A program made the position numbers and the translations under genes. This document shows, one piece after another, positions 16,229 to 61,040 of a stretch of 64,000 nt of DNA; the first letter of the stretch is position 1; the number at the start of each line of letters is the position of its first letter. Source of the stretch: Escherichia phage AV126; sequence record OR352956.1. One strand, given 5' to 3'. A model generated the notes under the pieces. It worked only from the letters and a program-made list of their open reading frames with translations, made no database searches and was not told the DNA's origin.

Positions 16229-16257
16229 GAGAATACAGCAATGGTTTAGGAGTGGTT

Positions 16258-23758: not shown

Positions 23759-24559
23759 TTATTTGTTTAAATGGTCTTCAACCATTTTGATAAAGCCTTC
23801 ATCACTGAAGACTGTTCCTGCTTTCTCTCGGTAGACAAGCACTCCACGTTCTTCGTAGAGAGTTTGTTCTACAAAATTCAAACCTGGGTTAACTACTACC
23901 ATCTTAACCCCAATATTCAGGGCAGGGAAGAGTTCCCAGTTGAAGTTGATTACTTGGTTAGAGCAGCCTACAACGATAACCATATCTTGTGATGTTAGTT
24001 GATCCAGTTTGTGATACATGTCTGTGTAGAGTGGTGCATTCTCACCAAAAAACACCACATTAGGCTTCACATATTTGTAATCGTCTACATCAATAGCTGC
24101 GTAACCCACATCTTTGATAATTTTGTTATCAACAACAACTTCTGGCAAGAAGCCATGAACGTGCAATATTTCTTCTCTATCGATTCCAGCGCGTTCTAAT
24201 AGATCGTCAACGTTAGTAGTAATGTTAATAATCCTTTCTGCACCGTATTTTTCGAACCATTCTCCAATCTGAAGATGTGCTGGATTCGGGTCAACTTTCT
24301 CTAATTCCACGCGACGTTTATTGTAGAAGTCGTGAGTTTTACGGTAGAGGTTATATCCTTCCACATCTAAGCCACCCATAGCATCAGGAATACCCTGTTC
24401 TTGCTGATAACCGTCACGGAAGTTGAAAATGTCACAGACTTCTGTTAAATCGTATTCATCCCATAATGCCTTTCCAGAATCTGTTTCTGTGCGAAATGTT
24501 TGGATTCCGCTGTCAGCACTTAGTCCCGCACCACTAATAAAATATACACGTCTTGGCAT
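23759..24559 (-). CDS. Sir2-like NAD-binding protein (no zinc-ribbon cysteines)
   Basis: GAGLSADSGI Rossmann motif, sirtuin-like NITTNVDDLLERAG, HG and VVFFGE motifs; no CxxC pairs. Confidence 0.55.
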   Translation of the reverse strand: MPRRVYFISGAGLSADSGIQTFRTETDSGKALWDEYDLTEVCDIFNFRDGYQQEQGIPDAMGGLDVEGYNLYRKTHDFYNKRRVELEKVDPNPAHLQIGEWFEKYGAERIINITTNVDDLLERAGIDREEILHVHGFLPEVVVDNKIIKDVGYAAIDVDDYKYVKPNVVFFGENAPLYTDMYHKLDQLTSQDMVIVVGCSNQVINFNWELFPALNIGVKMVVVNPGLNFVEQTLYEERGVLVYREKAGTVFSDEGFIKMVEDHLNK

Positions 24560-25090: not shown

Positions 25091-25744
25091 CTATACCAGA
25101 CTTTGTAGGTATTTGTCAAGGGCTTCTTGATCACCTTGGCAAACATAGCAACGGAAGTCTTGAGCCGAAGGTTGTTTATTTTCATCCCAATCCCAATAAA
25201 CGTTACCTTTATAACGTGAACCAGGGAACTCAAAAGAGGCTGTATGTGTAATGTACCCTGGGCCACCAGTGAAATCACAGAATGAAAATTGAGGGTATGC
25301 CGCCTTTACTGCCTCAATAAACCAAGCTTTACGATCTAAGGCTTCATTGATGCTATATGCATGTCTCTCCATTTCTTCCCAAGTTTTCCAGACGCTTCTC
25401 TCATCAGGAGAGAAGACAAGCCATTCTGGAAGGTAGAGAGTGTCATAGTAATCATCATATTCGATCTCGGATGCGCACGAAGCTGACTCCTCCAACTTTG
25501 AGTAGTCAAAAGCGGAATATACCCACCAACCATCTTCCAGCAAGGCTTTGATAGGGACAAAACCTTTATCTGCATATTGATCAAATTGTTTGACACGGTG
25601 GCTTGTGCAGTCTTCAAACTCACATTCTAAACGATATGCACCTTTTCGACGAGCCTCAAGACCGTGTGTACTGAAAATAACAACACTTCCTTCACCATCA
25701 TTACGATCTACTTGATAAGCAACTACTGGTTTTGAATTTGACAT
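25091..25744 (-). CDS. hypothetical protein (217 aa)
   Basis: coupled to the MTase-like gene. Confidence 0.5.
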   Translation of the reverse strand: MSNSKPVVAYQVDRNDGEGSVVIFSTHGLEARRKGAYRLECEFEDCTSHRVKQFDQYADKGFVPIKALLEDGWWVYSAFDYSKLEESASCASEIEYDDYYDTLYLPEWLVFSPDERSVWKTWEEMERHAYSINEALDRKAWFIEAVKAAYPQFSFCDFTGGPGYITHTASFEFPGSRYKGNVYWDWDENKQPSAQDFRCYVCQGDQEALDKYLQSLV

Positions 25745-26427
25745 TATTTCTCCTTATCTAGAAGATTGTTAGACAAAAACACTGCACGAGCAAAACCACG
25801 TGCGGTTAGTGATCTAAGTTGTTTTGTTTTTGCACTGGCTCCGCCTAAGCTTTTCCAACCCCAGAAGCAGCCTATATGATCTACTGGTTTCTTCACTGGT
25901 TGAACAAAACCATTGCCGTGCCAAATACAAGTTTTCTTTGTATACCCATCACGGGTAGGCATTTTAGGATGAAAGCTTCCTTCCTCTTCAAACAAATACC
26001 CACCATACTCATAAGGATCAAAGTAAAAATCGGGTTTACGCCATAAGGTTGAAAGTTTACCTACTGGGTTTTCAATCATCCAAGGAACATTATATTTGTT
26101 ACCCAAAGCTTCCACTACACGAATATTAGCTAAAGCTTCGTCTAATTCCTCTGTGCTGCGTTCGTGTTTGCTACCACTACCTGCTAACATAGTGCAAGGT
26201 GGAAATCCAAAAATAATATCGGGTTTAGGTATTCCATGATCTTCAGGGTTGAATGTAGAATCTATCCAAGCATTCACATAGGTTATGTTTGGGTGTTCCA
26301 TCCTAACCTCGTATTTACCGTGGTCCCCTTCATCAGCGTTTACACAAAAACACTTGTGACCTGCTTCGGCATAACGTAACACCATGATCCCAGATCCGTC
26401 AAACATAGACAAAACTGTTTTACTCAT
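25744..26427 (-). CDS. DNA cytosine-5 methyltransferase-like protein (divergent, short)
   Basis: motif I-like FDGSGI, motif IV-like GFPPCT (PCQ position), motif VI-like ENPVG; start trimmed to ATG at 26427 with GGAGGG SD. Confidence 0.5.
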   Translation of the reverse strand: MSKTVLSMFDGSGIMVLRYAEAGHKCFCVNADEGDHGKYEVRMEHPNITYVNAWIDSTFNPEDHGIPKPDIIFGFPPCTMLAGSGSKHERSTEELDEALANIRVVEALGNKYNVPWMIENPVGKLSTLWRKPDFYFDPYEYGGYLFEEEGSFHPKMPTRDGYTKKTCIWHGNGFVQPVKKPVDHIGCFWGWKSLGGASAKTKQLRSLTARGFARAVFLSNNLLDKEK

Positions 26428-26833
26428 TACCCCTCCATTCAAGACAAGCCATAACTTTACGCCAATCACTTTCTGTAAGAAAAATCTCGTTTGCTTTCTT
26501 CCACAAATCTAGATCGTGAAGGGTTGGAATACGATATGTTAGTTCACAGAATCTATGTTCTTCTTCTGTAATATAACCAAAATGCAAAGCCACATCGTGA
26601 AACCAACACCAACCATGCATCTCTCGAACAACATGATCATGTTGAGACATTGTTTTATGACGTAAACCTAACCAACAAGGAACAGATACTTTAGTAGTCT
26701 TTAATCTGTGATCAACAGTATTAGAGTATTCAATAATAGCTATCAATTTCAATCGTGCTTTTTCTAAATCCTCATGCGGCACTTTGAAATAACTTTCTGA
26801 AAGATATCCACACATATTAATAACCTCCTTCAA
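26420..26833 (-). CDS. hypothetical protein (137 aa)
   Basis: coupled within operon. Confidence 0.5.
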   Translation of the reverse strand: MKEVINMCGYLSESYFKVPHEDLEKARLKLIAIIEYSNTVDHRLKTTKVSVPCWLGLRHKTMSQHDHVVREMHGWCWFHDVALHFGYITEEEHRFCELTYRIPTLHDLDLWKKANEIFLTESDWRKVMACLEWRGNE

Positions 26834-27758
26834 AAGGCTTAACTACATGTTGATTAGCTTTAAAACGTTCAACATAGTCGTTTTCACCCATGTTTTCATA
26901 TAGCTTAGTAACAACATAAAAGTTCTCCCAAGCATATTCCCTAAACCAACCACTAGTGATAGATGTGCAAACTTTAGATAAAGCCATCATAAAACTTTGC
27001 TTAGGGGTTGGACCTCCGATCTCTTCACCGAAAGGAATTTGTGAACGTTCCAAAGCCAAAACACACGCTTCTTCATAAACACCTAACAGGCGCACATGTT
27101 TTGGTTGAGCAAAAAACTTTTCTTTGCTGGTCATAACTTCACTTCCATCTTTCATATAAGATTTATATGCTGGAGCATCCATTACTGCGATTGCTTCATG
27201 AATAGAGTCATGATCATAAACATACGGAACCTCATCACCTTTAAAGAAGTCTTTACTTCTCACGTTTAAGTTTGGATGAGAGTAAGTATATGTTTCTTTC
27301 TCACGCAACTCATAAATACTCTTAAGATTTTCTGGGATCTTTGCGCCTAGTGATCGCATGAAATGAATATCTTTCATAGTTTTAAAGAAGTAAGGACTAT
27401 CCTTTTTAAAACGATGACTCATTTTAAGAAGGTAGAGCACATCTAAAGGAGCAACAACGTGTCCAGCGTAAGTTCGACGAATATCATCACAGTCTTCACA
27501 ATAACTAATCAAAGCTTCTGTGCTATTTCCTTGAGAAGCAATATCGTATTCCAAATGTGCACCCGCTATCATTTTGACATGGCCCTTGTTCCCTTTACGC
27601 TCTACAAGTTCAACAAACTCATCTTGAGAGAACATTTTTGATAATTCTTCCCACTCTTGTTCTGTACAGAGATAATCTAAATCTACACAAGGGCGATACA
27701 AGTCTTTTCCCATGTCCATAGCATGAATTTGTAATGCACGGCTACCAATTAACACCAT
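26817..27758 (-). CDS. hypothetical protein, possible Pol-beta-fold nucleotidyltransferase
   Basis: N-terminal IGSRAL ... DLDYL resembles the GS-x(n)-DxD nucleotidyltransferase signature; AGAGGAGAA SD. Confidence 0.35.
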   Translation of the reverse strand: MVLIGSRALQIHAMDMGKDLYRPCVDLDYLCTEQEWEELSKMFSQDEFVELVERKGNKGHVKMIAGAHLEYDIASQGNSTEALISYCEDCDDIRRTYAGHVVAPLDVLYLLKMSHRFKKDSPYFFKTMKDIHFMRSLGAKIPENLKSIYELREKETYTYSHPNLNVRSKDFFKGDEVPYVYDHDSIHEAIAVMDAPAYKSYMKDGSEVMTSKEKFFAQPKHVRLLGVYEEACVLALERSQIPFGEEIGGPTPKQSFMMALSKVCTSITSGWFREYAWENFYVVTKLYENMGENDYVERFKANQHVVKPFEGGY

Positions 27759-28130: not shown

Positions 28131-28391
28131 TTAACAGCTACTACTGTGCCAAACGCCTTGAGAATTAACGACGAAACCATCATCACCTTCACCATAACAA
28201 GAAGAGGATTGCCAATCTTCAAAACAGATTGCGTTATCTTCTAAACTAAGACCAAAACCAGCATCTTCAGCTTCTTTTGTAAGTTCGTCCACTAAAGCCA
28301 TAATAGCTTGGGCTTTTTCAGTTAATTCTTCAACATTACGATCACTCATTAGTATTTCTCCTCCGGTTGGAAAACTGAACGACAAGCCCAC
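28131..28391 (-). CDS. small acidic protein, C-terminal W-x-SSS-C family (copy 2)
   Basis: ends QGVWHSSSC. Confidence 0.5.
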   Translation of the reverse strand: MGLSFSFPTGGEILMSDRNVEELTEKAQAIMALVDELTKEAEDAGFGLSLEDNAICFEDWQSSSCYGEGDDGFVVNSQGVWHSSSC

Positions 28392-28663
28392 ATACTAGCT
28401 TCTTTTAAATGTTTAATAGCACAACGGATTTGATCAATACGCTCGTATGCAACATCTAATTCTTTTTCTGTGCCGTCAAAAGACCCATGATATGCTTCAC
28501 AATACTCTTCCTCTAAAGCTTTGAAGATTAAACCTAAACGCTCTTCTGCATCTTTAATAGCGTTAACCTTGCCAATCTTATCGTCGGTATGCGCCTTATA
28601 ACCTTTGATATCTTCGATTCCCACTTTACCTCCTATTAACAACTTAAAGAAGATGGATGCCAA
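28349..28663 (-). CDS. hypothetical protein (start uncertain)
   Basis: ORF overlaps neighbour by 43 nt. Confidence 0.4.
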   Translation of the reverse strand: MASIFFKLLIGGKVGIEDIKGYKAHTDDKIGKVNAIKDAEERLGLIFKALEEEYCEAYHGSFDGTEKELDVAYERIDQIRCAIKHLKEASMWACRSVFQPEEKY

Positions 28664-32844: not shown

Positions 32845-33354
32845 TTAAACAAAATAAAATGGTTGAGAGAGGCCCAAACGATTCTTTGGGTCGTATACAT
32901 ACCAAGCGTATGCTGTCTTATCTGTTCCACCTGCAACAAACGAAGGCCGTTCTGAAAGAACTATAAGGTTTGTCGGTGGATTCTTTTGATGGAACTCTCG
33001 TCGTTTCTTTGACTCCAAGAAGCCCAACCGAAGAAGATAAATACAAACATCCGCCTCTTTTAAGCTCTTTTCCAAGAACTCCATTGCTAACTTAAATGGA
33101 GGGTTTGTGATTATAATGTCGGGACGATTTTCCCACTCGTGACTAAAATAATCCTTACCTTCTTCAAGTTCACAATATTCTGAACCTTCAGGAAAATGGC
33201 GATAAATCGCTTCAGCTTCACCTCTGCAAGGTTCTGCAAAAACCCAACCTTCTTCCTTTAGATTTTTGAAATCTATAACACTAAACAAACTGTTGATTGC
33301 TTTTTGCGGTGTCGGATAATAATCGCTCGTTGGGCGATCATAATCTAATGCCAT
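32845..33354 (-). CDS. DNA N6-adenine methyltransferase (small phage Dam-like)
   Basis: YYPTP motif and IIITNPPF (DPPY-type) catalytic motif. Confidence 0.6.
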   Translation of the reverse strand: MALDYDRPTSDYYPTPQKAINSLFSVIDFKNLKEEGWVFAEPCRGEAEAIYRHFPEGSEYCELEEGKDYFSHEWENRPDIIITNPPFKLAMEFLEKSLKEADVCIYLLRLGFLESKKRREFHQKNPPTNLIVLSERPSFVAGGTDKTAYAWYVYDPKNRLGLSQPFYFV

Positions 33355-33772: not shown

Positions 33773-33817
33773 TATTAATCTCCTATGTTTAAGAAATGCC
33801 CCCGAAGGGGCAGTTTG

Positions 33818-34510
33818 TTAAATAGCGGTTCCTTCGAAATCCGCCACATTTACGAGATTAATATTTTCAGATTTAGAAGTCAAGTTGTTTTCTGCAACAG
33901 ATTTTTCTTCAGTATCCGCCTCGTTACCTGCCACGTTACGAGGTTCTTCTTCACCGTAGGGATTACCGAATTTCAAAAGATTGATCAATTCTTCTTTGGA
34001 GAAGTTTTCTAAATCATCGTCTGTTAATTCAATAATCTCATCTTGTTCTTCAACAAATGTTTCACCACCAGAAAAAGCATCTCGCTTTTTAGCTACTTCC
34101 ATAGCCTGTTCTGGTGTTGCCCCTGCATCAAGAGCAGCTAAAGCAAAGTCTGACCCGCTTCCTACCGCATAATATTCTTCATCAATCGGATATGCACGTG
34201 TTGGGTTGTTACCTTCGTGCAGGAAAATACGTCCGTCAGGATGAACAACAAGTGCAATAAACTCTTCATCTTCTTTATCTGGATCAGAGTGAATCATCAA
34301 ACCAGGGACAGCATCACGTGCTGCTTCGCACTGTAGGTTTTGTTCAAACCATTGAAAGAAAGAAAGCACGGAGGTCAGACGACCAGCACCACCTACAAGG
34401 TAATCTCCAATTTTTCGGACCTTTTTGAAATTAATAGAATCTACACGTCCGCCAAAAGTTACCTTACCATCACTCAAAATCTTATTCTTGGTTGCAATAA
34501 TTGTCGTCAC
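33818..34510 (-). CDS. HslV-like N-terminal-threonine peptidase with acidic C-terminal extension
   Basis: MTTIIATKN start (Thr directly after Met), GGAG and AVGSGSDFALAAL blocks align with HslV; about 50 extra acidic residues at the C-terminus. Confidence 0.6.
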   Translation of the reverse strand: MTTIIATKNKILSDGKVTFGGRVDSINFKKVRKIGDYLVGGAGRLTSVLSFFQWFEQNLQCEAARDAVPGLMIHSDPDKEDEEFIALVVHPDGRIFLHEGNNPTRAYPIDEEYYAVGSGSDFALAALDAGATPEQAMEVAKKRDAFSGGETFVEEQDEIIELTDDDLENFSKEELINLLKFGNPYGEEEPRNVAGNEADTEEKSVAENNLTSKSENINLVNVADFEGTAI

Positions 34511-36504: not shown

Positions 36505-36765
36505 TTACTCCGCAATTTGAGCCATGAGATCACGCAGTTCGGTAAAACCGCCTACGTATGTTACCTCCCCGTTCACTTCAGACAGAATTTGTGGAAATGT
36601 GCGTGGAGGAACTCCGGTAAGATCAACAACTGTTTTAGTCATTGATTCTAAATCGTAGTCTTGGTCAAGACTTAAATATTCAAACTGTTTATTGCGCATG
36701 GTTAATAGTTGTTTTGACATTTCACAAAATTGACAGTTAGGTTTACCAAAAATTACAAATTCCAT
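36505..36765 (-). CDS. glutaredoxin/NrdH-like redoxin
   Basis: CQFC active-site motif in an 86 aa thioredoxin-fold-sized protein next to RNR genes. Confidence 0.7.
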   Translation of the reverse strand: MEFVIFGKPNCQFCEMSKQLLTMRNKQFEYLSLDQDYDLESMTKTVVDLTGVPPRTFPQILSEVNGEVTYVGGFTELRDLMAQIAE

Positions 36766-37607
36766 TACCTCTCCTTATTAAGTAATACTGCTAAAGACTG
36801 TTCAATACCTTTATTTAAATCTGATTTTGTAAGATAGTGACTGGTTACTAGTTGTGACTTCACCGGACGTGCTGCTGGAGCATTATAGGTTGAAGCTGAT
36901 ACCGCCGATATCTTAACAGGTTCTGGCATCTGTGTCAAGATCTTTTCCGCAAACTCCGCCCAAGAAATAAGATGGCTTCCTGCAAAATGGTAAGTCTTAA
37001 CAGATCTTGACCAACCTGTTTTTAATACTTCAAAAATAGCTTCTGCTAAATCTGGGGCATATGTTGGACAAGAGAACTGATCAGCAACAATAATAAAATC
37101 ACGTTGTCCATCATTATAGCGAGACAACATGGTTTTTAGAAAGTTATTTCCAAATTCGCTATATACCGAGGCTGTTCGAATAATATATGCATTTGGGTTA
37201 ACTCCTCGCACCATTTTTTCACCAAGTTCTTTCGTATACCCATAATTGTTTATTGGGTTAGGTGTAGTATCTTCAAAAATAGGATGAGAATAATTAAAAA
37301 TATAGTCTGTAGAAATATGCACAAAATCAATTTTAAGTTTGCTGCACACTGCCGCAATATTTGCAGGTCCATACGCATTAACAGCCAAAGCAGTAGCAAA
37401 TTCATGTTCTGCTTTATCTACCGCCGTATAAGCGGCGCAATTAATAACACCATCTACATAATCTTCAACAATAGCGTTTCGCACAGCTTCAAAATTTGTA
37501 ATATCTACACGTTCTTTAGGATAAATTAAAGATACATTTGCAGGGGCAACTTTACGTAAAGCTTGTCCCAGTTGTCCATTACCACCCAATACCAAATATG
37601 TTAGCAT
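36765..37607 (-). CDS. rmlD: dTDP-4-dehydrorhamnose reductase
   Basis: N-terminal LVLGGNGQLGQAL Rossmann motif; size and position within rml cluster. Confidence 0.8.
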   Translation of the reverse strand: MLTYLVLGGNGQLGQALRKVAPANVSLIYPKERVDITNFEAVRNAIVEDYVDGVINCAAYTAVDKAEHEFATALAVNAYGPANIAAVCSKLKIDFVHISTDYIFNYSHPIFEDTTPNPINNYGYTKELGEKMVRGVNPNAYIIRTASVYSEFGNNFLKTMLSRYNDGQRDFIIVADQFSCPTYAPDLAEAIFEVLKTGWSRSVKTYHFAGSHLISWAEFAEKILTQMPEPVKISAVSASTYNAPAARPVKSQLVTSHYLTKSDLNKGIEQSLAVLLNKER

Positions 37608-38167
37608 ACACCCTCGCTACGTAACTGTTGAAAAGATTTAGCCATTGCATCTTTTGTTGATAGGATAGGTTTAAAACCTTCATCAAAAATCATATCGAAG
37701 CCCCAATCGATCCCTATATCAGGATCATCCCAACGTAAACTTTGTTCACTAGAAGAGTCGTATGGAGTTGTGCATTTGTATTCAAAGATAGCATCCATAC
37801 TCAAAACTATAAAACCATGTGCCAAACCAGGTGGAAGCCAAAACTGCGTATGGTGTCGTGCACGAAGAACAACACCGTCCCAAGCACCGTAAGTAGGACT
37901 ATCTTTACGTAAGTCTACAGCGAAATCCAATACTTCACCACTTACACAACGAACAAGCTTACCTTGCGGATTATTTGTTTGAAAGTGCATTCCTCGCAAA
38001 ACACCGAAGTTTGATTTAGACATGTTATCTTGAACGAAAGTTTGTCTACCAATAATATCTTCGTATTTTTGTTCATTATATGTTTCTAAAAAGAAACCAC
38101 GGTCATCTTTATAAACGTCTGGTTTGATAATTACCGCACCTTCAATTTTTGTCTTTTCTACTTTCAT
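37601..38167 (-). CDS. rmlC: dTDP-4-dehydrorhamnose 3,5-epimerase
   Basis: cupin-fold epimerase signature (DDRGFF..E, RGMHFQ); start trimmed to ATG at 38167, ATGA-coupled to rmlA. Confidence 0.8.
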
Positions 38168-39042
38168 TTTCTCTCCGCTAATTTGAGTAGGTATTGCCCG
38201 TACTCTGTTTTCTTCAGTGAGTTTCCATGATATACCAAAGTCTCTAAAGAAATCCACCCTTTTTTGAAAGCAATTTCTTCCAGGCACGCAATCTTCAACC
38301 CTTGACGGTTCTCAATAGTCTGCACGAATTGACCAGCTTCCATCAGACTGGCGTGTGTTCCTGTGTCAAGCCAAGTAAATCCTCGTCCGAGAACTTCCAC
38401 TTGTAACTTCCTGTCTTCGAGGTAGCTGCGATTGATATCTGTGATCTCCAGTTCTCCCCGCGCGGAAGGGGTTACTTCTAATGCACGTTCAACAACAGAG
38501 TTATCATAGAAATACAAACCTGTGACAGCATAATCTGATTTAGGATTTTCAGGTTTCTCTTCAATAGAAATAGCTTGACGATTACTCCCAAATTCAACCA
38601 CACCGAATCGTTCAGGATCTTTCACCAAATACCCGAAGATACAAGCTCCGCCACAAACATCTACCATCTCACTGGCGTTAATCAGTAGTTTACCAAAGCT
38701 TTGTCCGAAGAATAGGTTGTCACCTAAAATAAGAGCAACAGAGTCTTCTCCGATAAAATCTTTACCGATGATGAAAGCGTCCGCAAGACCTCGTGGCTCG
38801 GATTGGATTGCGTAAGTGAGTTTTATCCCAAACATAGACCCATCTCCGAGAAGATACTCAAAGTCTTCCTGATCGCCTGGTGTGGTGATGATTAAGATAT
38901 CCTTAATGTCAGCCAACATCAATACCGATAAAGGGTAGTAGATCATGGGTTTGTCATACACAGGGAGCAATTGCTTGCTCACACTGCGTGTTACCGGATG
39001 AAGGCGGGTTCCACTTCCTCCCGCCAAAATAATACCTTTCAT
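38164..39042 (-). CDS. rmlA: glucose-1-phosphate thymidylyltransferase
   Basis: [14 protein letters not shown] nucleotidyltransferase motif; start trimmed to ATG at 39042 with AAGGAGGG SD. Confidence 0.85.
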
Positions 39043-39050
39043 AGCCCTCC

Positions 39051-40043
39051 TTAAATCTTCCCACTCCACCATTGAGGGTTGTTTAAGTACCATTCAATCG
39101 TTGAGTAGAGATCTTGTTCAAATGTAGAGTTTGCACTCCAACCCAGTTCAGACTCTATTTTAGAAGGATTGATTTCATAACGCAAGTCATGTCCTTTACG
39201 ATCTTCAACAAAAGTTATCAAGTTGGAAGAAGGGTAGGTTCCTGCTTCTGGATGTACAGCATCCATGTAGTCACAAACCATATAGATGATCTCCATATTG
39301 GTTTTGGGATTACGTGTTCCAACATTATACGTTTGACCTGGTTCTCCACCTGTTGCCACTTGAAGAATAGCTCGCGCATGATCCTCAACAAAAAGCCAGT
39401 CTCGCACCTGATCGCCTTTACCATACACCGGAATCTCTTTATTCGTCAAGATACTTGTGATGATTTTTGGGATCAGCTTTTCTGGATGTTGATAAGGTCC
39501 AAAGTTATTGGAGCAGTTGGTTATCACAACAGGTAAACCGTAGGTACGGTACCAAGCTTTCACAAGATGGTCAGATGCTGCCTTAGACGCACTGTACGGG
39601 CTTGAAGGGGCATAAGCTGTCTCTTCGGTAAAGGGAACGCCAGAGTCTGCCATATCGCCGTACACTTCGTCTGTGGAGACGTGTACGAACATCTTCAGTT
39701 TATTTTTTGGGAGGAGCCTTGCAGCTTCCAATAAATTGTATGTGCCAATAATATTGGAGTCGATGAAAACTCGTGGATTCTTGATAGAATTATCCACATG
39801 ACTCTCTGCCGCTAAGTGAATGATGAAATCGGGATTGCACTCTACTACTAAACTTTTGACCTGGGTTTCGTTTGCCAAATCTGTTATGCTTAGTTTAACG
39901 TGAGTGATATCGCCTACATTCTCAATATCTGCTGCATAGCCCATCTTATCAACGACAAAAACTTCGTTATTGGGATCTTGACAAAGAGAGCGCACCACGG
40001 CACTCCCAATAAAACCAAGACCACCTGTTACCAGATAGCGCAT
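39051..40043 (-). CDS. rmlB: dTDP-glucose 4,6-dehydratase
   Basis: [13 protein letters not shown] Rossmann motif, YSASKAASD catalytic YxxxK context. Confidence 0.85.
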
Positions 40044-40052: not shown

Positions 40053-40379
40053 TTACCAGACATGTTGAGAAATAATAGTTTCCGTTTTAATGTTATATTT
40101 TTCAAGTAGCTTTGCATAGGCTTCTTTTGCATTCTCATTCAATTGCTCAAGATCTACAGCTATGCTTCCTTCTCCGCCTTCTAAATCAAGGCCATATATG
40201 CAATAAGACTCATCCGCATCGTAGAAAGGAGAGATGCGGCTTAAGTCAAGACCTTCTTGTAAGAACCAGTTAAAATCTCCGTCAAATTCTTCTTCAATTC
40301 TAGGATCTTCTCCTACAGCCTCTTCCCACTTATTAAAAGGTGCACCCTGTAACATACGCCATTCGATATCAATACCCAT
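40053..40379 (-). CDS. hypothetical acidic protein (108 aa)
   Basis: ORF in operon. Confidence 0.5.
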   Translation of the reverse strand: MGIDIEWRMLQGAPFNKWEEAVGEDPRIEEEFDGDFNWFLQEGLDLSRISPFYDADESYCIYGLDLEGGEGSIAVDLEQLNENAKEAYAKLLEKYNIKTETIISQHVW

Positions 40380-40522
40380 TTTTCATCTCCTCCTCTTCTT
40401 GAGCAGCTTTAATAATTGCTTCATAAATATCGTAAGCAATGCCTCCACAACATCTAGCTTCGAAAGCTATTGCTTCTGCAATGTGATCTGTTAATTCTCG
40501 TGGAATGCGAACATACTCTTTT

Positions 40523-40675
40523 TCACTCTCCATCTTCTACCTCCAACCCTTCTTTTTCAAAGACTACTACTCGTCCCTCACCATGACAATTCAGGCAAGG
40601 AAATGTTACCATAATTTCCACTTCCATCTGTCCCGTCCCACCGCACACAGGACAAAAAATAAGTTTTTCAGCCAC
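40523..40675 (-). CDS. hypothetical zinc-ribbon mini-protein (50 aa, GTG start)
   Basis: CPVCGG ... CLNCHG; AGGAGGA SD; below the ORF-track cutoff. Confidence 0.35.
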   Translation of the reverse strand: MAEKLIFCPVCGGTGQMEVEIMVTFPCLNCHGEGRVVVFEKEGLEVEDGE

Positions 40676-40884
40676 TATTCCTCCTTAATTATTTCAAATT
40701 TGGCAACACCATTTACAATAATATGACCACAAGACATAACTCCTAGCCAAGGATCGCCGTTTTTCTTCAGGCGTTTACCGAATACATCACAAAAACCATT
40801 CTTCATTTCAGAGGCTTCATAAGAAGCCCCTTTATCAAAAACGTCTTTGAATGTGTCGATTATACCAACACATTTCAAAATCAT
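40675..40884 (-). CDS. hypothetical protein (69 aa)
   Basis: coupled to nrdB. Confidence 0.45.
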   Translation of the reverse strand: MILKCVGIIDTFKDVFDKGASYEASEMKNGFCDVFGKRLKKNGDPWLGVMSCGHIIVNGVAKFEIIKEE

Positions 40885-41969
40885 TCGAAGTCAAGCTCCT
40901 CATCATCAGAGAGATCTTTGTTAGCTGAATTCAATTTGTAATTAGTTAACTGAATCTCTTGGGCTGCTGACTGAATCAAATCAGGATTCAACCATTTTTC
41001 CATCCAAGCTAAAGGACTGTGTTTAGGTGCTTTAAACTTGGCTTTCATTTTCAATCGACGATAAATAGGAGCAGCATTGAAATAAACCCACTGTTTAGAC
41101 AATTCGGCGTTAAGACCTACAATAAAACGACCTTCACTAAACAGGTAGTCACACCACTGTTCCTCTTGTTCAACAACAGTGTCGAGGATCAAAGTCAACT
41201 CTTCAATATTGTCTTCGTAAATTTTACGCCAAATTGGGTCATGCATCAATGCATCAATTACAGCATAATCCATCTTAACATGCAAGATTTCATCTAGCAT
41301 AATTTTCTGGATCAGTTTACAAGCTCCAACAAACAGTTGTTGTTCTGCCATAGCAAAAGTAGCAGAGAAGGAAGATATAAACTGGATACCTTCTAACCCA
41401 ATCAGGGCTACCATCCCTTTAAGAATCAGCAATCGAAGTTCATCGTTAGCTTCAATCAATCCTAGAGCATACTTATGACCAGCTTCTTCCAACTGACCCA
41501 TGATATCAGCAATGATACCCATACGATTGAAAATTTTATCATTAACCATAATCTGATTGATGACTTCAATTGGATCTGGAGTACATTGACGGATTATTTC
41601 AGAATACGTTAACGCATGGAGAACTTCCATTTCACTCTGCTTCATCATCATAGCACAGGCTTCATTGTTACTCAAGAATGGAGAGAACAAAGTGATGATT
41701 GATTTTGCAAGAGAATCATTTTCCCATTGGAACGATAAGTTTTTAATCATAACATCATAGTTGTTTTTAGAACAAGCTACGAAATCTTTACGTGTCTGAT
41801 CTAGATTAACTTCGTTTTCATCCCAATCTTGTGCTTTTTGAAGTTTGTAGAGTTTGTGCATTTCTGGATAAGTTACGTTAACAGAATCAAAGATCCCTAA
41901 TTGCTCCCCCAAAAATACTGGATATTTTCCTGTTTTGTAAACTTCATTGTGTAAATTAATTGCTGCCAT
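40881..41969 (-). CDS. nrdB: ribonucleotide reductase small subunit (class Ia beta)
   Basis: di-iron ligand motifs EGIQFISSF and DEILH; size ~360 aa. Confidence 0.85.
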   Translation of the reverse strand: MAAINLHNEVYKTGKYPVFLGEQLGIFDSVNVTYPEMHKLYKLQKAQDWDENEVNLDQTRKDFVACSKNNYDVMIKNLSFQWENDSLAKSIITLFSPFLSNNEACAMMMKQSEMEVLHALTYSEIIRQCTPDPIEVINQIMVNDKIFNRMGIIADIMGQLEEAGHKYALGLIEANDELRLLILKGMVALIGLEGIQFISSFSATFAMAEQQLFVGACKLIQKIMLDEILHVKMDYAVIDALMHDPIWRKIYEDNIEELTLILDTVVEQEEQWCDYLFSEGRFIVGLNAELSKQWVYFNAAPIYRRLKMKAKFKAPKHSPLAWMEKWLNPDLIQSAAQEIQLTNYKLNSANKDLSDDEELDFE

Positions 41970-42012: not shown

Positions 42013-42669
42013 TTAGCCTCGAAATACTGTTTTTGTTTCCGCCAGGTGCCAATAGAAATCAGCTTTGTTTACAAGAGTGTTGTACACCTCTGGATAAAAA
42101 TGTTCTTCCTCTTTGTAACGATCTGCTGTTTCCCTGATTGACTTAGCTTTATCCTTTAGCCAAGCGAAGTGTGCCTCTTCCTCTGTAGAGAAGTAGCCTA
42201 AATGCTTTCCTTTACTCCCAGAAGCTTTGGCATAAATCTTACCATCTTTCCTAACATGTGCTCCTAGTAAGTATTTTCTTTCATACCTCTTAGCATAACT
42301 TAAGAGTGTATTTATATAAGGAGGAACAAACCTACAATATTCAGGACAATAAACAGTATTTCCTTCAAGAACAAGATCTTTATCTAAAACAAAGCCTTCC
42401 ACATTGTGTTCTTGATACTAGTTATCAAAGTTTGAAAAGGTGAACCAAGCATCACACACAGTAACATCTTTATAACCTGGTCTAATGTTTTCCATACGAT
42501 ATGCACGATTAAACATGCCTTTCCAAGCTGCATAGGAAGGGTCTATGAATGTATTAACCCTTTTCCCATTGATAACACCACCTTCCCACAATCTACGTTC
42601 AACATCCACAATCAAGGGGATTTCTCCCCTCTCTGTGAGAACGGTAACTTTACGTTTACCCTTCTTCAT
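42013..42669 (-). pseudogene. homing-endonuclease-like gene (AP2-domain type) interrupted by an in-frame TAG
   Basis: ORFs 42418..42669 and 42013..42402 are in the same frame, separated by an amber codon at 42418-42420; C-terminal part has an AP2-like HLGYFSTEEEAHFAW motif. Confidence 0.45.
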
Positions 42670-42680: not shown

Positions 42681-44924
42681 CTACATTTTACAGGCACTAC
42701 ACCCTTCGTCTTCAGAATCTTCTTGTGCTAAAGAATCTGCTGATTTTGTTCTACTGTTAAGGTAATACAATGACTTACCACCCAGTCTAGCAAAATTCAG
42801 AATAAACTGCATCTCAGCTTTCACTGATAAACGTCCACCTACCAATTTAGAATAATCTAGCCAAGAATCACAAGAAATTCCTTGGTCCGTAAACTTGGTA
42901 AAGATACCATACATTTCTGCAAGATCTTTAGCCGGAGTGTCCCAGGCAGACTGGTAGAACATTTTCAGTTTTTCATAATCTGGAACAATAAATAATACGC
43001 TACCTTTCTGACTTTGTTTATACATAATAGTATCACGAACAGGGTACAGAGAGTTAGTAGTATTGCTTACCAAACTGCTGGACTCATTAGGTGCAATAGC
43101 AGCCAAGACACTGTTACGGATACCACCTTGTTCAATGATTTCAGCACGTAAGCCTTCCCAGTCCATTTTAAGATCAAAATTACCGATACTATCTACTGTT
43201 TTAGCATAAGTGTCAATTGGTAGCCAACCTTGAGGCCATTTGGTCTTATCGATCCATTCTGCATTACCTTTTTCCTTAGCCAGACGCAGAGAGGCTTTTG
43301 CCAACCAAAAGTAATGACGTTCTGCAAGTTCATGCATTAATTTTTTAGCATAAGCATCTGAATAATTTACAAAATTACTTGCCAAATAATGCGCTAAGTT
43401 TGTAATACCTACACCAATAGATCTACGTGCTTTAGCAGTTATTTCGTTATGTTTAAATGGATAATCCATTGTTTCAATAACGTTGTCAATTGTCAATACA
43501 GTGTAGTATGCAACATCCTCATATTCTTCAGGTAAGACACGACCAGCGACAATAGAAGATAAGAAGCATAAAGCCAATTCTTGATCTTCTGTATTCTCAC
43601 CAGTAAAGAGATCCGGCATACTGTGGAAAGCTTTAGTTGGTAAGAAGATCTCTTGACACAGGTTTGATTGATACACCGTATCCAGGAAAGGTGTATGGTT
43701 GTTAACGTTGTCAGCAAAGAACATGTAAATACGTCCTGTTTCTGCACGTTGAACAATAATCTCTGTCAGAAGATCACGAGCCTTAACAAATTTTTTCTTA
43801 ATGCGACGACGGCTTACTTTGTCATAAACTGCATCAAACTCTTCTTCACTTTTATACAAGGCTTCATAAAGTTCAGGAGCATCATCACAACTAACTAACA
43901 TCCAGTCTTCGTTTTTTGCTGCTCGACGCAAGAACGAACGGTTAACAACAATAGAATAATCTAGTTTGTCTACTCGTTTATCTATAGGTGTTGTTGGATT
44001 CTTCAGTCGAATCAGATCGTCGAAGTCTGGTTCAAGTATGGTAAAGGTAACTGTAGCACTACCTCCACGGCTTGCTTGCTTCGAAGCTCCAACACTATCT
44101 TCCATCCATTTCAGATATGGAAGAAGACCACCATGAATAATACGATTATTCTTAACACCTTGACCTGTGGCACGAGTTTGAAGATTAACACCAATACCTG
44201 CGTTATTCAACGTATACTCATGAGCTAAGTAATTAGCAATGGCTAAAGACTCTGCCGTATCGTCTGCACGGAACAAACAACAAGACGCACTTCCTTTGAT
44301 TGGAGTTCGTAGAGTTGTCAGATACGGCGATGGCAGATTAATCTTGAGATCGCTAACATAAGTATAAAGTTTTTTAATATCTTCTATACGGCGTTCTTTT
44401 GGTTGGATCTCCATAACCTTCATTGCGATACCAATGAAAAGAAACTGTGGAGACTCATGCACCACATCGTTTACTGCATCTCGAATAAGATATTTATCTA
44501 CCATCTGACGTAAAACAGAATAACCATAAGTTAGATTTTTATTATGCTTTACAATCTTACCGATTTCTTTGATCTCTTCATCAGTATAATCCATTTTAGC
44601 CCAATGTCCACGTTCTACCATATCATGATAAAAGGTATTCAGTGAAGGGATACTGTGGTATCCCCCATGAGCCTGTTTGTAAATCATACCCAGAAGAAGT
44701 CTTCCTGCCATATCACTGTAAGCTTGTGTTTTCTTGTCAATACACGCTGCAATCATTGCTTTATGCAGATCACGTGTAGACACACCGTCATAACACCGCT
44801 TCACAGCTTCTAATTCAATTTCAGACCAGTTTAGTTTACCTGCTGCAAATTCAGACCACTTGCGAAGTTTTTCTGGATTAAACTCCTCTGTCTTACCATT
44901 AGATTTAGTTACAAAACGAATCAA
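42681..44924 (-). CDS. nrdA: ribonucleotide reductase large subunit (class Ia alpha)
   Basis: N-terminal ATP-cone, ~750 aa, adjacent to nrdB. Confidence 0.9.
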   Translation of the reverse strand: MIRFVTKSNGKTEEFNPEKLRKWSEFAAGKLNWSEIELEAVKRCYDGVSTRDLHKAMIAACIDKKTQAYSDMAGRLLLGMIYKQAHGGYHSIPSLNTFYHDMVERGHWAKMDYTDEEIKEIGKIVKHNKNLTYGYSVLRQMVDKYLIRDAVNDVVHESPQFLFIGIAMKVMEIQPKERRIEDIKKLYTYVSDLKINLPSPYLTTLRTPIKGSASCCLFRADDTAESLAIANYLAHEYTLNNAGIGVNLQTRATGQGVKNNRIIHGGLLPYLKWMEDSVGASKQASRGGSATVTFTILEPDFDDLIRLKNPTTPIDKRVDKLDYSIVVNRSFLRRAAKNEDWMLVSCDDAPELYEALYKSEEEFDAVYDKVSRRRIKKKFVKARDLLTEIIVQRAETGRIYMFFADNVNNHTPFLDTVYQSNLCQEIFLPTKAFHSMPDLFTGENTEDQELALCFLSSIVAGRVLPEEYEDVAYYTVLTIDNVIETMDYPFKHNEITAKARRSIGVGITNLAHYLASNFVNYSDAYAKKLMHELAERHYFWLAKASLRLAKEKGNAEWIDKTKWPQGWLPIDTYAKTVDSIGNFDLKMDWEGLRAEIIEQGGIRNSVLAAIAPNESSSLVSNTTNSLYPVRDTIMYKQSQKGSVLFIVPDYEKLKMFYQSAWDTPAKDLAEMYGIFTKFTDQGISCDSWLDYSKLVGGRLSVKAEMQFILNFARLGGKSLYYLNSRTKSADSLAQEDSEDEGCSACKM

Positions 44925-45635: not shown

Positions 45636-45700
45636 CTCCTCCCAGTATTGTGCTATATTATACTAAAACTAATACTAAAGTCAATAGCTATTTAAACAGA

Positions 45701-46693
45701 TCACCATTTAGTATGATTTGTTAAAAGTTGACGATGTTGAATCCAGCCTTTGAAATTTCCAGACCACAAACAACATTTACGATCCATATGTGTAATACCT
45801 TCTTCCCAAGTAGTAGGGAATGGGGGCATATTAACACCACCTTTTTGTTGTTTTAATCCTGACAAATCCATTTCTTTCATTGGAGTTGCTTGATGTTCAA
45901 ACGGAGAAGCATGGACTTTACGTCCAGTCAGCAAACGCCCGTAGATATCCAAAGCTTTATCTTTGGTTGCATTTAAACGACGATAGCTAACCTGTGCACA
46001 ACACGAAGCTGAAATAGCTTTGGCTTCTTCCAAAGTAAGCACAACGACTTCTCCAGATTCATCTTGAACGTAGTATCCACCAAAAACAAAATGATCGTCA
46101 CCTTCTGTGCCAATAGTATCATAGAAATGGTCTACATAAGGTGTGTGCCATTGCCCTGGTTTCAGCACTTCTGGTGTAGATCCTTCATACTCTTTGTGCA
46201 TCTCTTTAGCCAAAGCTTCGATAGTAGGATCGGCTTCTTTGTCATCACGTAGCCACCAGAAATTTTCATATTCTGTTGCTGTCAGAACTGTTTTAATTCG
46301 TTGGAAAGGTTCCAGAAGACGGTTTGCAACTTGTTTGTGGTACCCTGCCAAAGAGAATTCTTCTGCAAAACGTGCTGCACTAAGCGCGGCAAGATCCCAC
46401 CACTCTTGAGCAGTATAACCTGCATCAATAAGAGCGTCATGATCAACACCTTTATCCTGCATACCAGGTTGGTTAGCCCCAAAACGATAAGGACGAGCAG
46501 GTTGATTTCGCACCATTTCAATCAGTGTTTTAACAGGTATAGCACGGCTAGAAGCAGCATTACGACTGAACATGCGGTGAGTCATCAATTCTGAATGAAT
46601 AATACGTGGATATTCTAGTTCAAAAGTTACAATCTCTTTTCCGTCTTCAGTGATGGAATGCGCAATAATACTAGCCGAAATCTGTTTTGTCAT
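45701..46693 (-). CDS. thyX: flavin-dependent thymidylate synthase
   Basis: ThyX signature RHRxxSxxxxSxR present as THRMFSRNAASSRA. Confidence 0.85.
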   Translation of the reverse strand: MTKQISASIIAHSITEDGKEIVTFELEYPRIIHSELMTHRMFSRNAASSRAIPVKTLIEMVRNQPARPYRFGANQPGMQDKGVDHDALIDAGYTAQEWWDLAALSAARFAEEFSLAGYHKQVANRLLEPFQRIKTVLTATEYENFWWLRDDKEADPTIEALAKEMHKEYEGSTPEVLKPGQWHTPYVDHFYDTIGTEGDDHFVFGGYYVQDESGEVVVLTLEEAKAISASCCAQVSYRRLNATKDKALDIYGRLLTGRKVHASPFEHQATPMKEMDLSGLKQQKGGVNMPPFPTTWEEGITHMDRKCCLWSGNFKGWIQHRQLLTNHTKW

Positions 46694-46702: not shown

Positions 46703-47311
46703 TTAGTTTTTAAAATTGTTCAAAGTGTTAAAAACGTCCAAACATGTTAGCCACTGATCTTCTAAACCTGTGATCACAACATTTGGTTTTTTCTTTAGTT
46801 CTTCTAGATGGTTATCTTTATAAGGTGTATTAAAATATATTTTAACCACTTCATCTGGAAAATATAGTAGGTTATCAGCCCTGTCATCTATTGCTATATC
46901 ACAAGGCAATAAATATTTTTCTTTTGTAGCAAAAAAGCCGTTACCAGATCCTTTGCTAAAATCAATCGTATCTAATGTTCTTAAAACATGTTTATGTTTA
47001 GAACTTAAGTGACCACCTTTTGTAACACTTGCGATCAAAAGATTACTACCTTTTCTTGAAACATATTTTAAGAAATCCGGCATACCTGTAACAAAACCCA
47101 TTGTATCATAGAGATGAGGATTATCCAGAAATCCGTAAGGATCTATATTGAACTCCTCCCTGAAACCAGGGAAGTAGTTGGTAAGATCGTAGTCTGCATT
47201 TTTTGTGAATGTGTCTATCTTAACACCAAGTCCACTAATCTTATTCAACCATTCTAACCAAGCAACATCTAATGGAGCCACAACTAAATCCCAATCACAT
47301 ACTATCTGCAT
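46703..47311 (-). CDS. HAD-superfamily hydrolase, possible 5'-deoxyribonucleotidase
   Basis: N-terminal CDWDLVV (DxDxV HAD motif I). Confidence 0.4.
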   Translation of the reverse strand: MQIVCDWDLVVAPLDVAWLEWLNKISGLGVKIDTFTKNADYDLTNYFPGFREEFNIDPYGFLDNPHLYDTMGFVTGMPDFLKYVSRKGSNLLIASVTKGGHLSSKHKHVLRTLDTIDFSKGSGNGFFATKEKYLLPCDIAIDDRADNLLYFPDEVVKIYFNTPYKDNHLEELKKKPNVVITGLEDQWLTCLDVFNTLNNFKN

Positions 47312-56150: not shown

Positions 56151-56495
56151 TTAGTAGTGCACACGAATCATTTTAATACCATAACGCAGCATGGATTCTT
56201 TTGCAAGCATGAATTTATCCCCAGCGGCGGGATTAGAAGTATGCACGAAAATGGTGGGTGAACCAAAGCAAGGTTTACCAAACGCCAGAAGTTCTTCCAG
56301 GTACAGGAAAACATCATACCCATCTTGGTCTGACTCCATACCTAAATCATTGTCAAAAGACCACTCGGTTACTCTTCGATACAGTTTAGCAGGATCGTTG
56401 AGAAAGGCCATAGCTTCTTGTGACGTTTTAAACCAAATCGCATCCTCCTGTCCATAGTCGGCTGGGTTCCGCATATCATCTATCCAAACTTTCAT
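56151..56495 (-). CDS. hypothetical protein (114 aa)
   Basis: ORF in operon. Confidence 0.5.
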   Translation of the reverse strand: MKVWIDDMRNPADYGQEDAIWFKTSQEAMAFLNDPAKLYRRVTEWSFDNDLGMESDQDGYDVFLYLEELLAFGKPCFGSPTIFVHTSNPAAGDKFMLAKESMLRYGIKMIRVHY

Positions 56496-60248: not shown

Positions 60249-60323
60249 GGCCCTGTAGCTCAATGGGAGAGCTGTCGGCTCATAACCGATAGGTAGCTGG
60301 ATCGAAACCAGCCAGGGCCACCA
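60249..60323 (+). tRNA. tRNA with CAT anticodon (Met or lysidine-Ile2 type)
   Basis: cloverleaf folded by eye: acceptor GGCCCTG/CAGGGCC, anticodon loop CTCATAA, T-arm GCTGG-ATCGAAA-CCAGC, CCA encoded. Confidence 0.7.
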
Positions 60324-60325
60324 AC

Positions 60326-60400
60326 GTCTTTATGGTGTAATGGATAGCACAGGAGTCTTCTAAACTCTTAGTCAAGGTTCGATTCCTTGTAAAGACACCA
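60326..60400 (+). tRNA. tRNA-Arg (TCT)
   Basis: acceptor GTCTTTA/TAAAGAC, anticodon loop CTTCTAA, T-loop TTCGATT, CCA encoded. Confidence 0.7.
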
Positions 60401-60645
60401 GAACATTTTAACATGAATTAGCTCAAGTGATTTGAACCCACTACTGATCATGGTGGCAGAGAATGAGGCAAGTATGTCAGACATTATAAACAAAGGCCAC
60501 GGTTATATTAGAAGACATAAATGCTCGAAGAGCACCGTTCGTGGAGAACGGGGGTTGGTGGAGTCACCATTCATGGTAAAATGTTTTAAAAAACTATTGA
60601 CAACAAACATTATTTTATGTTAGATTATAAGTATGGAAGGGCAAA

Positions 60646-60727: not shown

Positions 60728-60729
60728 TT

Positions 60730-60815: not shown

Positions 60816-60946
60816 AAGTTCTTTTTAATGTAGCTTACTTTAGCAGAGTAAATCTTCGGCAAGTGGCGGTAACCACTTTACCGATAACTCATAGTTAGTG
60901 GTGCGAACACTGGCTATTTTAAAAAGAATTTAAATATTAGTATTTA

Positions 60947-61034: not shown

Positions 61035-61040
61035 AATTAA

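Follow-up and report, generated by a model that had tools for sequence, protein, structure and literature searches.

The window analysed here, a stretch of 64,000 nucleotides from Escherichia phage AV126 (sequence record OR352956.1), carries in a minus-strand block of nucleotide-metabolism genes the four consecutive genes rmlB, rmlA, rmlC and rmlD, which are confirmed as genes and are predicted to form a complete, working and phage-owned pathway to deoxythymidine diphosphate (dTDP)-L-rhamnose. Comparisons with related phages indicate that the cluster was inherited vertically from an ancestor of the subfamily Stephanstirmvirinae and that rmlC and rmlD are its core pair, which appears always to be kept, whereas rmlB and rmlA can be lost. 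With a probability of about 0.5, the operon would feed glycosyltransferases of the phage itself, which would build a short glycan in the cytoplasm with an acceptor that is probably not bulk DNA.

As a hallmark of the phAPEC8/phi92 group the rml cluster is already known, since it has been annotated and, in papers of 2020, 2021 and 2024, described as peculiar. The sequence-only reading had taken a full dTDP-rhamnose route to be unusual in a phage; the route is indeed complete, but it is neither new nor rare, being annotated across the genera Phapecoctavirus and Justusliebigvirus. In the literature searched, which did not extend to the phi92 and phAPEC8 genome papers, no test of the function of the cluster, no rhamnosylated DNA and no glycosylated virions were found. 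What is added here is the fixed position of the cluster throughout the subfamily, the rmlCD core, the distribution of a glycosyltransferase cassette and the case against bulk DNA as the acceptor.

Identity of the four enzymes

Enzyme identity was assigned by a score above the curated equivalog cut-off of the respective NCBIfam family, and motifs were aligned to solved structures. RmlB scores 429.4 bits against TIGR01181 (cut-off 365.1), residues 2-327 corresponding to profile positions 1-319 of 321, RmlA scores 469.1 bits against TIGR01207 (cut-off 360.65), RmlC 222.2 bits against TIGR01221 (cut-off 155.75) and RmlD, by a narrow margin, 237.6 bits against TIGR01214 (cut-off 224.05). The Pfam assignments concur for all four proteins. 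The homology search that had been proposed together with the sequence-only reading thus places all of them in Rml equivalog families, and none in an unrelated short-chain dehydrogenase/reductase, cupin or nucleotidyltransferase family.

At the level of single residues, RmlB aligns end to end with RmlB of Salmonella enterica (1g1a, E 7e-111) and keeps the NAD-binding GxxGxxG motif (as GGxGFIG), TDE and YxxxK (in YSASKA). The closest solved relative of RmlA is 4ho0 (E 3e-126), with respect to which GGSGTRLxPxT, LGDN, EEKP and WLDTGT are kept and the sugar and metal ligands are intact. In RmlC, which was aligned with 1dzr (E 6e-55), all of the catalytic residues (His, Lys, Tyr, Asp) are retained, the segments matching the catalytic positions being LRGMHFQ, QGKLVRC, FEYKCT and STKDA, and RmlD aligns to 3sc6 (E 2e-44) with GxxGxxG, STDY and YxxxK conserved, its segments ISTDYIF and YGYTKELGE aligning with both 3sc6 and 1vl0. 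In the predicted pathway, RmlA would join deoxythymidine triphosphate (dTTP) and glucose-1-phosphate, RmlB would make dTDP-4-keto-6-deoxy-glucose, and RmlC and RmlD would convert this intermediate to dTDP-L-rhamnose, the rml genes presumably being expressed together with the nucleotide-metabolism genes of the phage.

Phage origin, distribution and selection

AV126 belongs to Phapecoctavirus (phAPEC8-like phages of the Stephanstirmvirinae), and its rml segment is 98-99% identical at the DNA level to that of 64 independent phage records of this genus, most of which already name the four genes as such. The cluster is annotated in phAPEC8 (JX561091, genes 00100-00103) as well as in most of the approximately 130 records of Phapecoctavirus and Justusliebigvirus. 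A tblastn query consisting of the four Rml proteins joined end to end further detects co-linear clusters in PsgM04F and phiWec181 (about 81-83% identity), in the sister genus Justusliebigvirus, i.e., the phi92-like phages (about 62%), and in Klebsiella phage 05F01 (52%). Common to Phapecoctavirus, Justusliebigvirus, PsgM04F and the Klebsiella phages is the order nrdA, nrdB, small open reading frames (ORFs), (rmlB-rmlA)-rmlC-rmlD, grx, a small ORF, lysozyme and phoH, where grx is a glutaredoxin-like gene and the brackets denote the pair that can be missing. The Rml proteins are 54-70% identical to those of phage EmilieFrey, and the neighbouring proteins have similar values (Grx 56%, an HslV-like protein 64%, PhoH 76%).

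The RmlD proteins form a phage-only clade with 51-99% identity, located on contigs of about 150 kb, and cellular RmlD proteins, mostly from Bacteroidota, are at most 45% identical to phage RmlD. In 5426 complete E. coli genomes, the best DNA match reaches 64% identity over 45% of the query. In addition, the ratio of nonsynonymous to synonymous substitution rates (dN/dS) ranges from 0.02 to 0.21 over all four rml genes (0.06-0.12 for rmlB, 0.02-0.03 for rmlC), which indicates purifying selection. The conserved position, the divergence from E. coli and the purifying selection therefore argue for an old, vertically inherited and functional set of phage genes, in agreement with the earlier suggestion of phage cargo as opposed to host contamination. 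That the segment might be host DNA or the product of a chimeric assembly, as could be suspected from the G + C content of rmlA and rmlB (41-43%, slightly above the 36-39% of neighbouring genes, with 38% in rmlC and rmlD), is ruled out by its unchanged position in 64 phages sequenced independently (at least 95% identity) and, at 52-83% protein identity, in other genera, and by the comparison with E. coli, the rml genes moreover being translationally coupled to phage genes on both sides.

Two further observations concern single records. The rml operon of PsgM04F (L006, 4001-7276) is a mosaic: identity to the AV126 proteins is 95% for RmlB and 98% for RmlA but only 64% for RmlC and 66% for RmlD, suggesting that phage lineages have recombined within the operon. 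Also, the records MG065650, OP562383, OR584014 and MH252123 are near-identical to Phapecoctavirus or Justusliebigvirus of E. coli despite being labelled as phages of Campylobacter, Acinetobacter, Pseudomonas or Klebsiella, indicating either doubtful host labels or a very broad host range.

The rmlC-rmlD core

Phage Mt1B1_P17 lacks the rmlB-rmlA pair. The ribosome-binding sites of rmlB and rmlC have GGAGA in common, and the deletion junction lies exactly within this microhomology, so that a suitable start region is left in front of rmlC. Exactly this junction is present in 22 records, including ESCO37, anhysbys, nepoznato, ZCKP1, SF1-1 and WPEC1, 2, 4 and 6, as compared to 41 matching records without it, so that about one third carry the deletion; that ESCO37 lacks rmlA and rmlB was noted in a 2023 study (PMC10269720). 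In this lineage rmlC and rmlD are full-length and, by dN/dS, still constrained. A Klebsiella phage clade comprising KP13-26, KP2025, FKP3 and phi1_175008 likewise matches over rmlC-rmlD only, rmlB and rmlA being absent from the annotated locus of KP13-26. In turn, roughly two thirds of Phapecoctavirus and the whole of Justusliebigvirus retain rmlA.

The products of rffG and rffH of the enterobacterial common-antigen cluster make dTDP-4-keto-6-deoxy-glucose, and at least one rml-like locus is present in all of the 5426 complete E. coli genomes. The loss of rmlB and rmlA would therefore be tolerated because enterobacterial hosts themselves make the 4-keto intermediate for the common antigen or the O-antigen. 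This suggests that what the phage needs is the end product dTDP-L-rhamnose, and that rmlA and rmlB may only free it from the supply by the host.

Glycosyltransferases of this phage type

As the sequence-only reading had stated, a Pfam scan of all ORFs of at least 100 amino acids found no glycosyltransferase in the window; however, this phage type does possess four such genes, which lie outside it. The scan was run on concatenated pseudo-proteins, and its Serglycin and proline-rich matches were discarded as linker artefacts. A search beyond the window, as had also been suggested, found four annotated glycosyltransferase genes in tandem at 87,984-91,128 in vB_Ec-G1, a relative 98.7% identical to AV126, where they adjoin genes for a primase/helicase, a DNA methyltransferase and DNA polymerase I. 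Two of the products, GT4 (187 amino acids) and GT3 (227 amino acids), are small GT-A-type proteins with DxD motifs, and the remaining two are paralogous GT-B proteins of about 315 amino acids each. The block is also present in TSP7_1, the best match of AV126, and in about 128 records of the rml-bearing clades, its proteins being 55-61% identical between E. coli and Klebsiella phages. Neither the match list of the glycosyltransferase block nor that of the rml genes contains an evident Vequintavirus record.

GT3 is weakly similar both to PF20691, the family of TET-associated glycosyltransferases (E 0.0012, under the gathering score), and to a PHROG annotated as beta-glucosyl-HMC alpha-glucosyltransferase, and searches of GT3, GT4 and GT-B against solved structures gave nothing useful and no specific similarity to T4 transferases. 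Fold searches with models of GT3 and GT-B returned clear but generic GT-A and GT-B folds, that of GT-B resembling PglA, PimA, WaaG and WbnH, enzymes which act on lipid-linked sugars.

Just past the glycosyltransferases, vB_Ec-G1 (L003, 6451-16531) encodes a full Ter stress-response set comprising TerD, a vWA-TerF-like protein, TelA, an SprT-like protein, TerC, a Macro protein, a ComF-like phosphoribosyltransferase and a sub-threshold match to a haloacid dehalogenase (HAD) hydrolase. Ter-type sets are predicted to make a nucleoside-like metabolite.

A GT4-GT3-GT-B cassette in other phages

At least 577 stretches of viral contigs were confirmed to hold a relative of GT-B. In a neighbourhood sample, for which 78 viral loci of the GT-B family were kept, 22 loci have GT3 or GT4 beside GT-B. 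Across 28 loci combining GT-B with GT3 and/or GT4, GT-B occurs in 28, GT3 in 25 and GT4 in 17, and there is no conserved acceptor gene beside the cassette in these 28 loci, only the three transferases being common. The cassette is mobile and occurs in many phages. In temperate prophages of Pseudomonas silvicola, Enterobacter huaxiensis and Serratia as well as in related contigs it resides between lysis and HNH/terminase genes and therefore in a late operon, and in large myophages it adjoins primase and DNA polymerase A genes. A capsid family common to the cassette-bearing phages was considered and rejected, as three families were seen, the lambda-E type (PF03864), PF09950 and the HK97 type (PF05065).

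At three unrelated phage loci (L009, L011 and L029) the cassette encloses a gene for an RmlB-like 4,6-dehydratase. With 171-180 bits, this enzyme stays below the TIGR01181 cut-off; it is 30% identical to the RmlB of the phage and is the only link in gene neighbourhood between the cassette and 6-deoxy-hexose chemistry. The expectation that rml genes would be found beside the cassette in other viral contigs was not borne out, as the RmlB-like gene alone was seen, in one of the 78 kept loci as well as in L009 and L011.

In Burkholderia dolosa (L012, 3025-8440) and Trinickia symbiotica (L015, 2742-9026), chromosomal GT-B homologues reside beside an inverse autotransporter of the intimin/invasin type and an adjoining gene of about 560 codons, the product of which had no Pfam match in the one case tested. 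These loci may be adhesin-glycosylation modules, and would as such be a weak hint at protein glycosylation.

Possible uses of dTDP-L-rhamnose

Both the link from donor to transferase and the nature of the acceptor are inferred: dTDP-L-rhamnose would most likely be the donor for at least one of the four transferases, GT4, GT3 and the two GT-B paralogues, and these would assemble a short glycan with rhamnose in it within the cytoplasm, most plausibly on a phage (virion) protein and probably not on bulk DNA. Put more narrowly, the product may feed GT4, GT3 and GT-B as a self-contained cassette that places a short deoxyhexose-containing glycan on a phage component, either a virion protein or, less likely, DNA, a version which has to be regarded as tentative and slightly less probable than the broader one.

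Several observations weigh against such a use. In this phage type, some 50 kb separate the rml operon from the glycosyltransferase block, and their co-occurrence, both being present in the Stephanstirmvirinae, largely represents one phylogenetic event. Klebsiella phage FBKp34 has GT-B homologues but, as judged from the count of Klebsiella records only, apparently no rmlCD. Among the 22 loci bearing GT3 or GT4, an RmlB-like gene is found within 10 kb only in L029, and rmlA, rmlC and rmlD in none. The modelled transferase folds are generic and reveal neither donor nor acceptor. At least three capsid families and the lack of a conserved acceptor gene by the cassette are awkward for a specific protein acceptor, and the location of the cassette among replication genes in large myophages would fit a role in DNA modification.

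Alternatively, extra dTDP-L-rhamnose, or a diverted 4-keto intermediate, might remodel the host envelope by altering lipid-linked glycans, O-antigen, common antigen or lipopolysaccharide, via host rhamnosyltransferases or the phage transferases, with the possible effect that superinfecting phages are kept out or that progeny does not stick to cell debris. RmlC and RmlD consume an intermediate that E. coli needs for the Fuc4NAc of its common antigen. Such a drain on the common-antigen precursor would be in line with the retention of rmlCD alone in two lineages, but in the other phages rmlA and rmlB would raise the precursor pool, not deplete it. Recognition of surface glycans by these phages, as revealed by lowered infectivity on a wecB mutant (PMC8594841) and by the NGR glycan receptor (bioRxiv 10.1101/2024.09.12.612763), as well as the similarity of the GT-B fold to enzymes of lipid-linked sugars, also speak for an effect on the envelope. 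However, it is this NGR glycan, and not the common antigen, to which the primary receptor of the sister genus was later assigned in the newer BASEL preprint (bioRxiv 10.1101/2024.09.12.612763), which weakens the idea of precursor diversion as a means of receptor masking. Moreover, no flippase and no gene of the GtrA/B/C or Wzx/Wzy type was detected in the scans of the window and of the relative's genome, the sole membrane protein detected being TerC, and the conservation of the transferases across E. coli and Klebsiella phages in spite of the great variation of host O-antigens makes a serotype-specific target unlikely. Finally, the cassette of the temperate relatives occupies a late lytic operon and not a position of lysogenic conversion. 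Envelope remodelling is considered unlikely.

A second alternative has been put forward by Olsen et al. (2020), who called the cluster peculiar and proposed rhamnosylation of hydroxymethylated nucleotides (PMC7552041), so that rhamnose on a modified base of the phage DNA would block host nucleases. The rml operon is indeed located among nucleotide-metabolism genes, the cassette lies beside primase/helicase, DNA methyltransferase and DNA polymerase genes in large myophages, GT3 has its sub-threshold match to PF20691 and its alpha-glucosyltransferase PHROG, and given the unrelated capsid families of the cassette-bearing phages DNA would be the sole acceptor that all of them share. However, Maffei et al. 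(2021) described the 'putative dTDP glycosylation machinery' in phages which they found to be 'exceptionally susceptible' to restriction-modification (PMC8594841), although this refers to phi92-like phages and thus to the sister genus and not to Phapecoctavirus itself, and a 2024 study that repeated the idea of a 'rhamnose modification' pointed out the restriction sensitivity as well (PMC10844046). In addition, Pfam detects no ThyA-type hydroxymethylase, 5-hydroxy-dCMP synthase or TET/JBP domain in the window ORFs of at least 100 amino acids, which include an ordinary ThyX (PF02511), nor is there such a domain in 27 poorly annotated coding sequences of the replication module of vB_Ec-G1. Small temperate phages, in turn, carry the cassette among late genes with no nucleotide-modifying gene nearby. 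Because no base-hydroxylating enzyme was found and relatives are reportedly very sensitive to restriction, rhamnosylation of bulk DNA is unlikely, and DNA hypermodification as the purpose of the cluster is judged to be quite improbable.

A third possibility involves no glycan at all. dTDP-L-rhamnose is a feedback inhibitor of RmlA-type thymidylyltransferases, and by inhibiting the RmlA/RffH enzymes of the host it might spare dTTP for phage DNA synthesis. The coupling of the operon to genes for deoxynucleotide supply (nrdAB, thyX, an NT5C-like nucleotidase and grx) would fit this metabolic control, as would the rmlCD-only lineages, in which the two enzymes suffice to turn a host intermediate into the inhibitor. 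However, the phage's own RmlA consumes dTTP, and yet purifying selection acts on it in the roughly two thirds of Phapecoctavirus and the whole of Justusliebigvirus that have it, and the conserved cluster of four transferases would be left unexplained, rendering this explanation just as doubtful as a role in DNA modification.

Gene arrangement and transcription

The coordinates of the rml genes and of the associated features are compiled in Table 1. At the rmlB-rmlA junction, a gap of 8 nucleotides contains the Shine-Dalgarno sequence AAGGAGG; the stop of rmlA and the start of rmlC overlap in ATGA, rmlC and rmlD overlap in ATGCTAA, and a TAATG overlap translationally couples rmlD to grx. The true start of rmlA is the ATG at 39042, 8 nucleotides downstream of AAGGAGG, and not the longest-ORF start at 39093, and that of rmlC is the ATG at 38167, preceded by GGAGAG, and not the longest-ORF GTG at 38287; phAPEC8 is annotated with the same two starts. 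Equivalog scores, motifs and overlaps hence bear out the initial description of four consecutive, coupled minus-strand genes for RmlB, RmlA, RmlC and RmlD. Their placement between grx and nrdB/nrdA is likewise confirmed, with four small ORFs intervening between rmlB and nrdB, while the span originally assigned to the pathway, 36505-40043, contains the rml genes (36765-40043) but also takes in the glutaredoxin gene.

Table 1. Location of the rml genes and associated features in the AV126 window
Feature	Position	Strand	Remark
rmlB, dTDP-glucose 4,6-dehydratase, 330 aa	39051-40043	-	
rmlA, glucose-1-phosphate thymidylyltransferase, 292 aa	38164-39042	-	
rmlC, dTDP-4-dehydrorhamnose 3,5-epimerase, 188 aa	37601-38167	-	
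rmlD, dTDP-4-dehydrorhamnose reductase, 280 aa	36765-37607	-	
grx, glutaredoxin-like gene	36505-36765	-	Outside the sugar pathway; Pfam Glutaredoxin
Four small ORFs (108/54/50/69 aa)	40053-40884	-	Between nrdB and rmlB
nrdB	40881-41969	-	Upstream part of the same leftward gene block
nrdA	42681-44924	-	Upstream part of the same leftward gene block
Best sigma-70-like promoter match	45657-45684	-	Upstream of the nrd-rml block; consensus match only
Terminator-like hairpin	33797-33812	-	Downstream of the block; consensus match only

The best promoter-like site of the block consists of TTGACT and TATAAT with a 16-nucleotide spacer and agrees with the consensus at 11 of 12 positions, and consensus matching revealed no site of comparable strength directly upstream of rmlB. 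As the strongest site of the block thus lies upstream of nrdA, co-transcription of the rml genes with nrdAB is likely. The hairpin downstream has a stem of six pairs, five of them G-C, followed by a T-run. The four small ORFs between nrdB and rmlB are kept at the same position in relatives and are probably co-transcribed with the block; NCBIfam and Pfam gave no family match for them except for a weak zinc-ribbon match of 40523-40675 (-), a 50-amino-acid protein that contains two CxxC pairs and weakly matches DnaJ_CXXCXGXG and DUF5351. The grx product scores 38.1 bits against Pfam Glutaredoxin (gathering score 22.9) and stays under every NCBIfam cut-off.

In the phAPEC8 annotation, nrdA and nrdB are the subunits of a class Ia ribonucleotide reductase. 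The gap between them holds two ORFs without Pfam match, 42013-42402 (-) with 129 and 42418-42669 (-) with 83 amino acids, where phAPEC8 has a single ORF of 408 nucleotides and Mt1B1_P17 none. The ORFs at this variable spot of the reductase operon are possibly remnants of a mobile element.

Other genes of the window

Several further genes of the window deserve mention. They include a 104-amino-acid protein with an Acb2/Tad1 hairpin domain (28349-28663, -; PF24729, E 1.2e-14), a fold known from phage sponges directed at cyclic-nucleotide immune signals, a Sir2-family protein (23759-24559, -; PF02146, E 9e-19) which is also annotated as Sir2-like in phAPEC8, a protein with a cREC_REC domain, i.e., a cyclic-phosphate processing receiver domain (56151-56495, -; PF20274, E 1.3e-15), and a protein of 313 amino acids combining DUF7277 (E 2e-13) with DUF7275 (E 1.6e-74) (26817-27758, -). 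Two methyltransferase-like proteins have no Pfam match: in the first (25744-26469, -), FDGSG and FGFPPC recall by eye the C5-cytosine methyltransferases, and the second (32845-33354, -) has an NPPF motif, its homologues in EmilieFrey and PsgM04F being annotated as N6-adenine or DNA methyltransferases. An HslV/proteasome-like protein (33818-34510, -) matches Proteasome only weakly (E 2.8e-4), its relatives being annotated as HslV-family peptidase or proteasome component. ThyX (45701-46693, -) is unusually long with 330 amino acids, of which only residues 22-174 match Thy1 (E 3.8e-7), and is followed by the NT5C-like deoxyribonucleotidase (46703-47311, -; sub-threshold match, E 8e-4). A serine recombinase (16252-16929, +; Resolvase N-terminal domain, E 1e-16) is present in a phage regarded as strictly virulent, and ten tRNA genes, for Met, Arg, Ser, Asn, Thr, Gly, Gln, Pro, Ile and a second Met, lie at 60249-62173 (+).

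Significance

Phages of the genera Phapecoctavirus and Justusliebigvirus have a broad host range and are widely proposed for therapy and biocontrol. If their virions were decorated with the sugar, this could alter how antibodies recognise them, how they bind to mucus and how they are cleared from the body, and if the DNA or the host envelope were marked, this would bear on the escape from host defences and on superinfection. Natural pairs of four-gene and rmlCD-only phages, such as ESCO5 and ESCO37, make the role of the sugar directly testable. Should the cassette indeed use the product of the rml operon to glycosylate a phage component, it would be the first system for rhamnosylation to be described from a tailed coliphage, and perhaps a general phage route to a sugar coating, the cassette ranging from small temperate prophages to virulent coliphages of 150 kb.

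Comparison with known systems

With respect to phAPEC8 and the other Phapecoctavirus, whose rml genes agree with those of AV126 in number, order and position except in the records with the rmlBA deletion, AV126 is another four-gene member that differs in nothing of substance. Justusliebigvirus has the same order and context with proteins that are 54-70% identical, gp064 and gp065 of phi92 being RmlD and RmlC. The bacterial rml/rfb loci of E. coli, Salmonella and P. aeruginosa encode the same four enzyme families with the same catalytic residues, and presumably the chemistry is the same as well. However, the phage order B-A-C-D differs from the enterobacterial order B-D-A-C found in the E. coli matches, the concatenated RmlB and RmlA of the phage are only 57% identical to a Salmonella locus, and the closest structures to phage RmlD come from other bacteria (3sc6, 1vl0) and are not of the enterobacterial type (1kbz). 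Also, the phage genes lie inside a nucleotide-metabolism block and have no O-antigen genes adjacent to them.

T-even glucosylation, by alpha-GT and beta-GT on hydroxymethylcytosine, and Mosigvirus arabinosylation are likewise found in virulent myophages with sugar genes in DNA metabolism and transferases near replication genes, and it is this resemblance that prompted the published hypothesis of DNA rhamnosylation (PMC7552041). However, the T-even system draws on a sugar nucleotide of the host and depends on an enzyme that hydroxymethylates or hydroxylates a base, and no such enzyme was found in the AV126 window or in the scanned coding sequences of vB_Ec-G1. Restriction, to which T-even phages are resistant, strongly affects phi92-like phages (PMC8594841). 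As for seroconversion by GtrABC, no GtrA flippase and no domain of the GtrB or GtrC type was present in the window or in the remaining genome of the relative.

In contrast to virion glycosylation of the mycobacteriophage type, the cassette of the Stephanstirmvirinae adjoins replication and not structural genes; in the temperate relatives, it lies between lysis and terminase/head genes. The UDP-L-rhamnose pathway of Mimivirus, the chlorovirus capsid and mycobacteriophage virions exemplify viral sugar-nucleotide synthesis with cytoplasmic glycosyltransferases, the acceptors being virion proteins. Rhamnose is among the glycan sugars of giant viruses, whose donors are UDP- or GDP-linked and not dTDP-linked. 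Finally, cyanophages of Synechococcus and Prochlorococcus as well as uncultured phages carry single genes or pairs at 30-45% identity, coding for dehydratases/epimerases of the short-chain dehydrogenase/reductase type or RmlC-like proteins, and in contrast to these partial sets AV126 has a complete and co-linear operon of all four genes.

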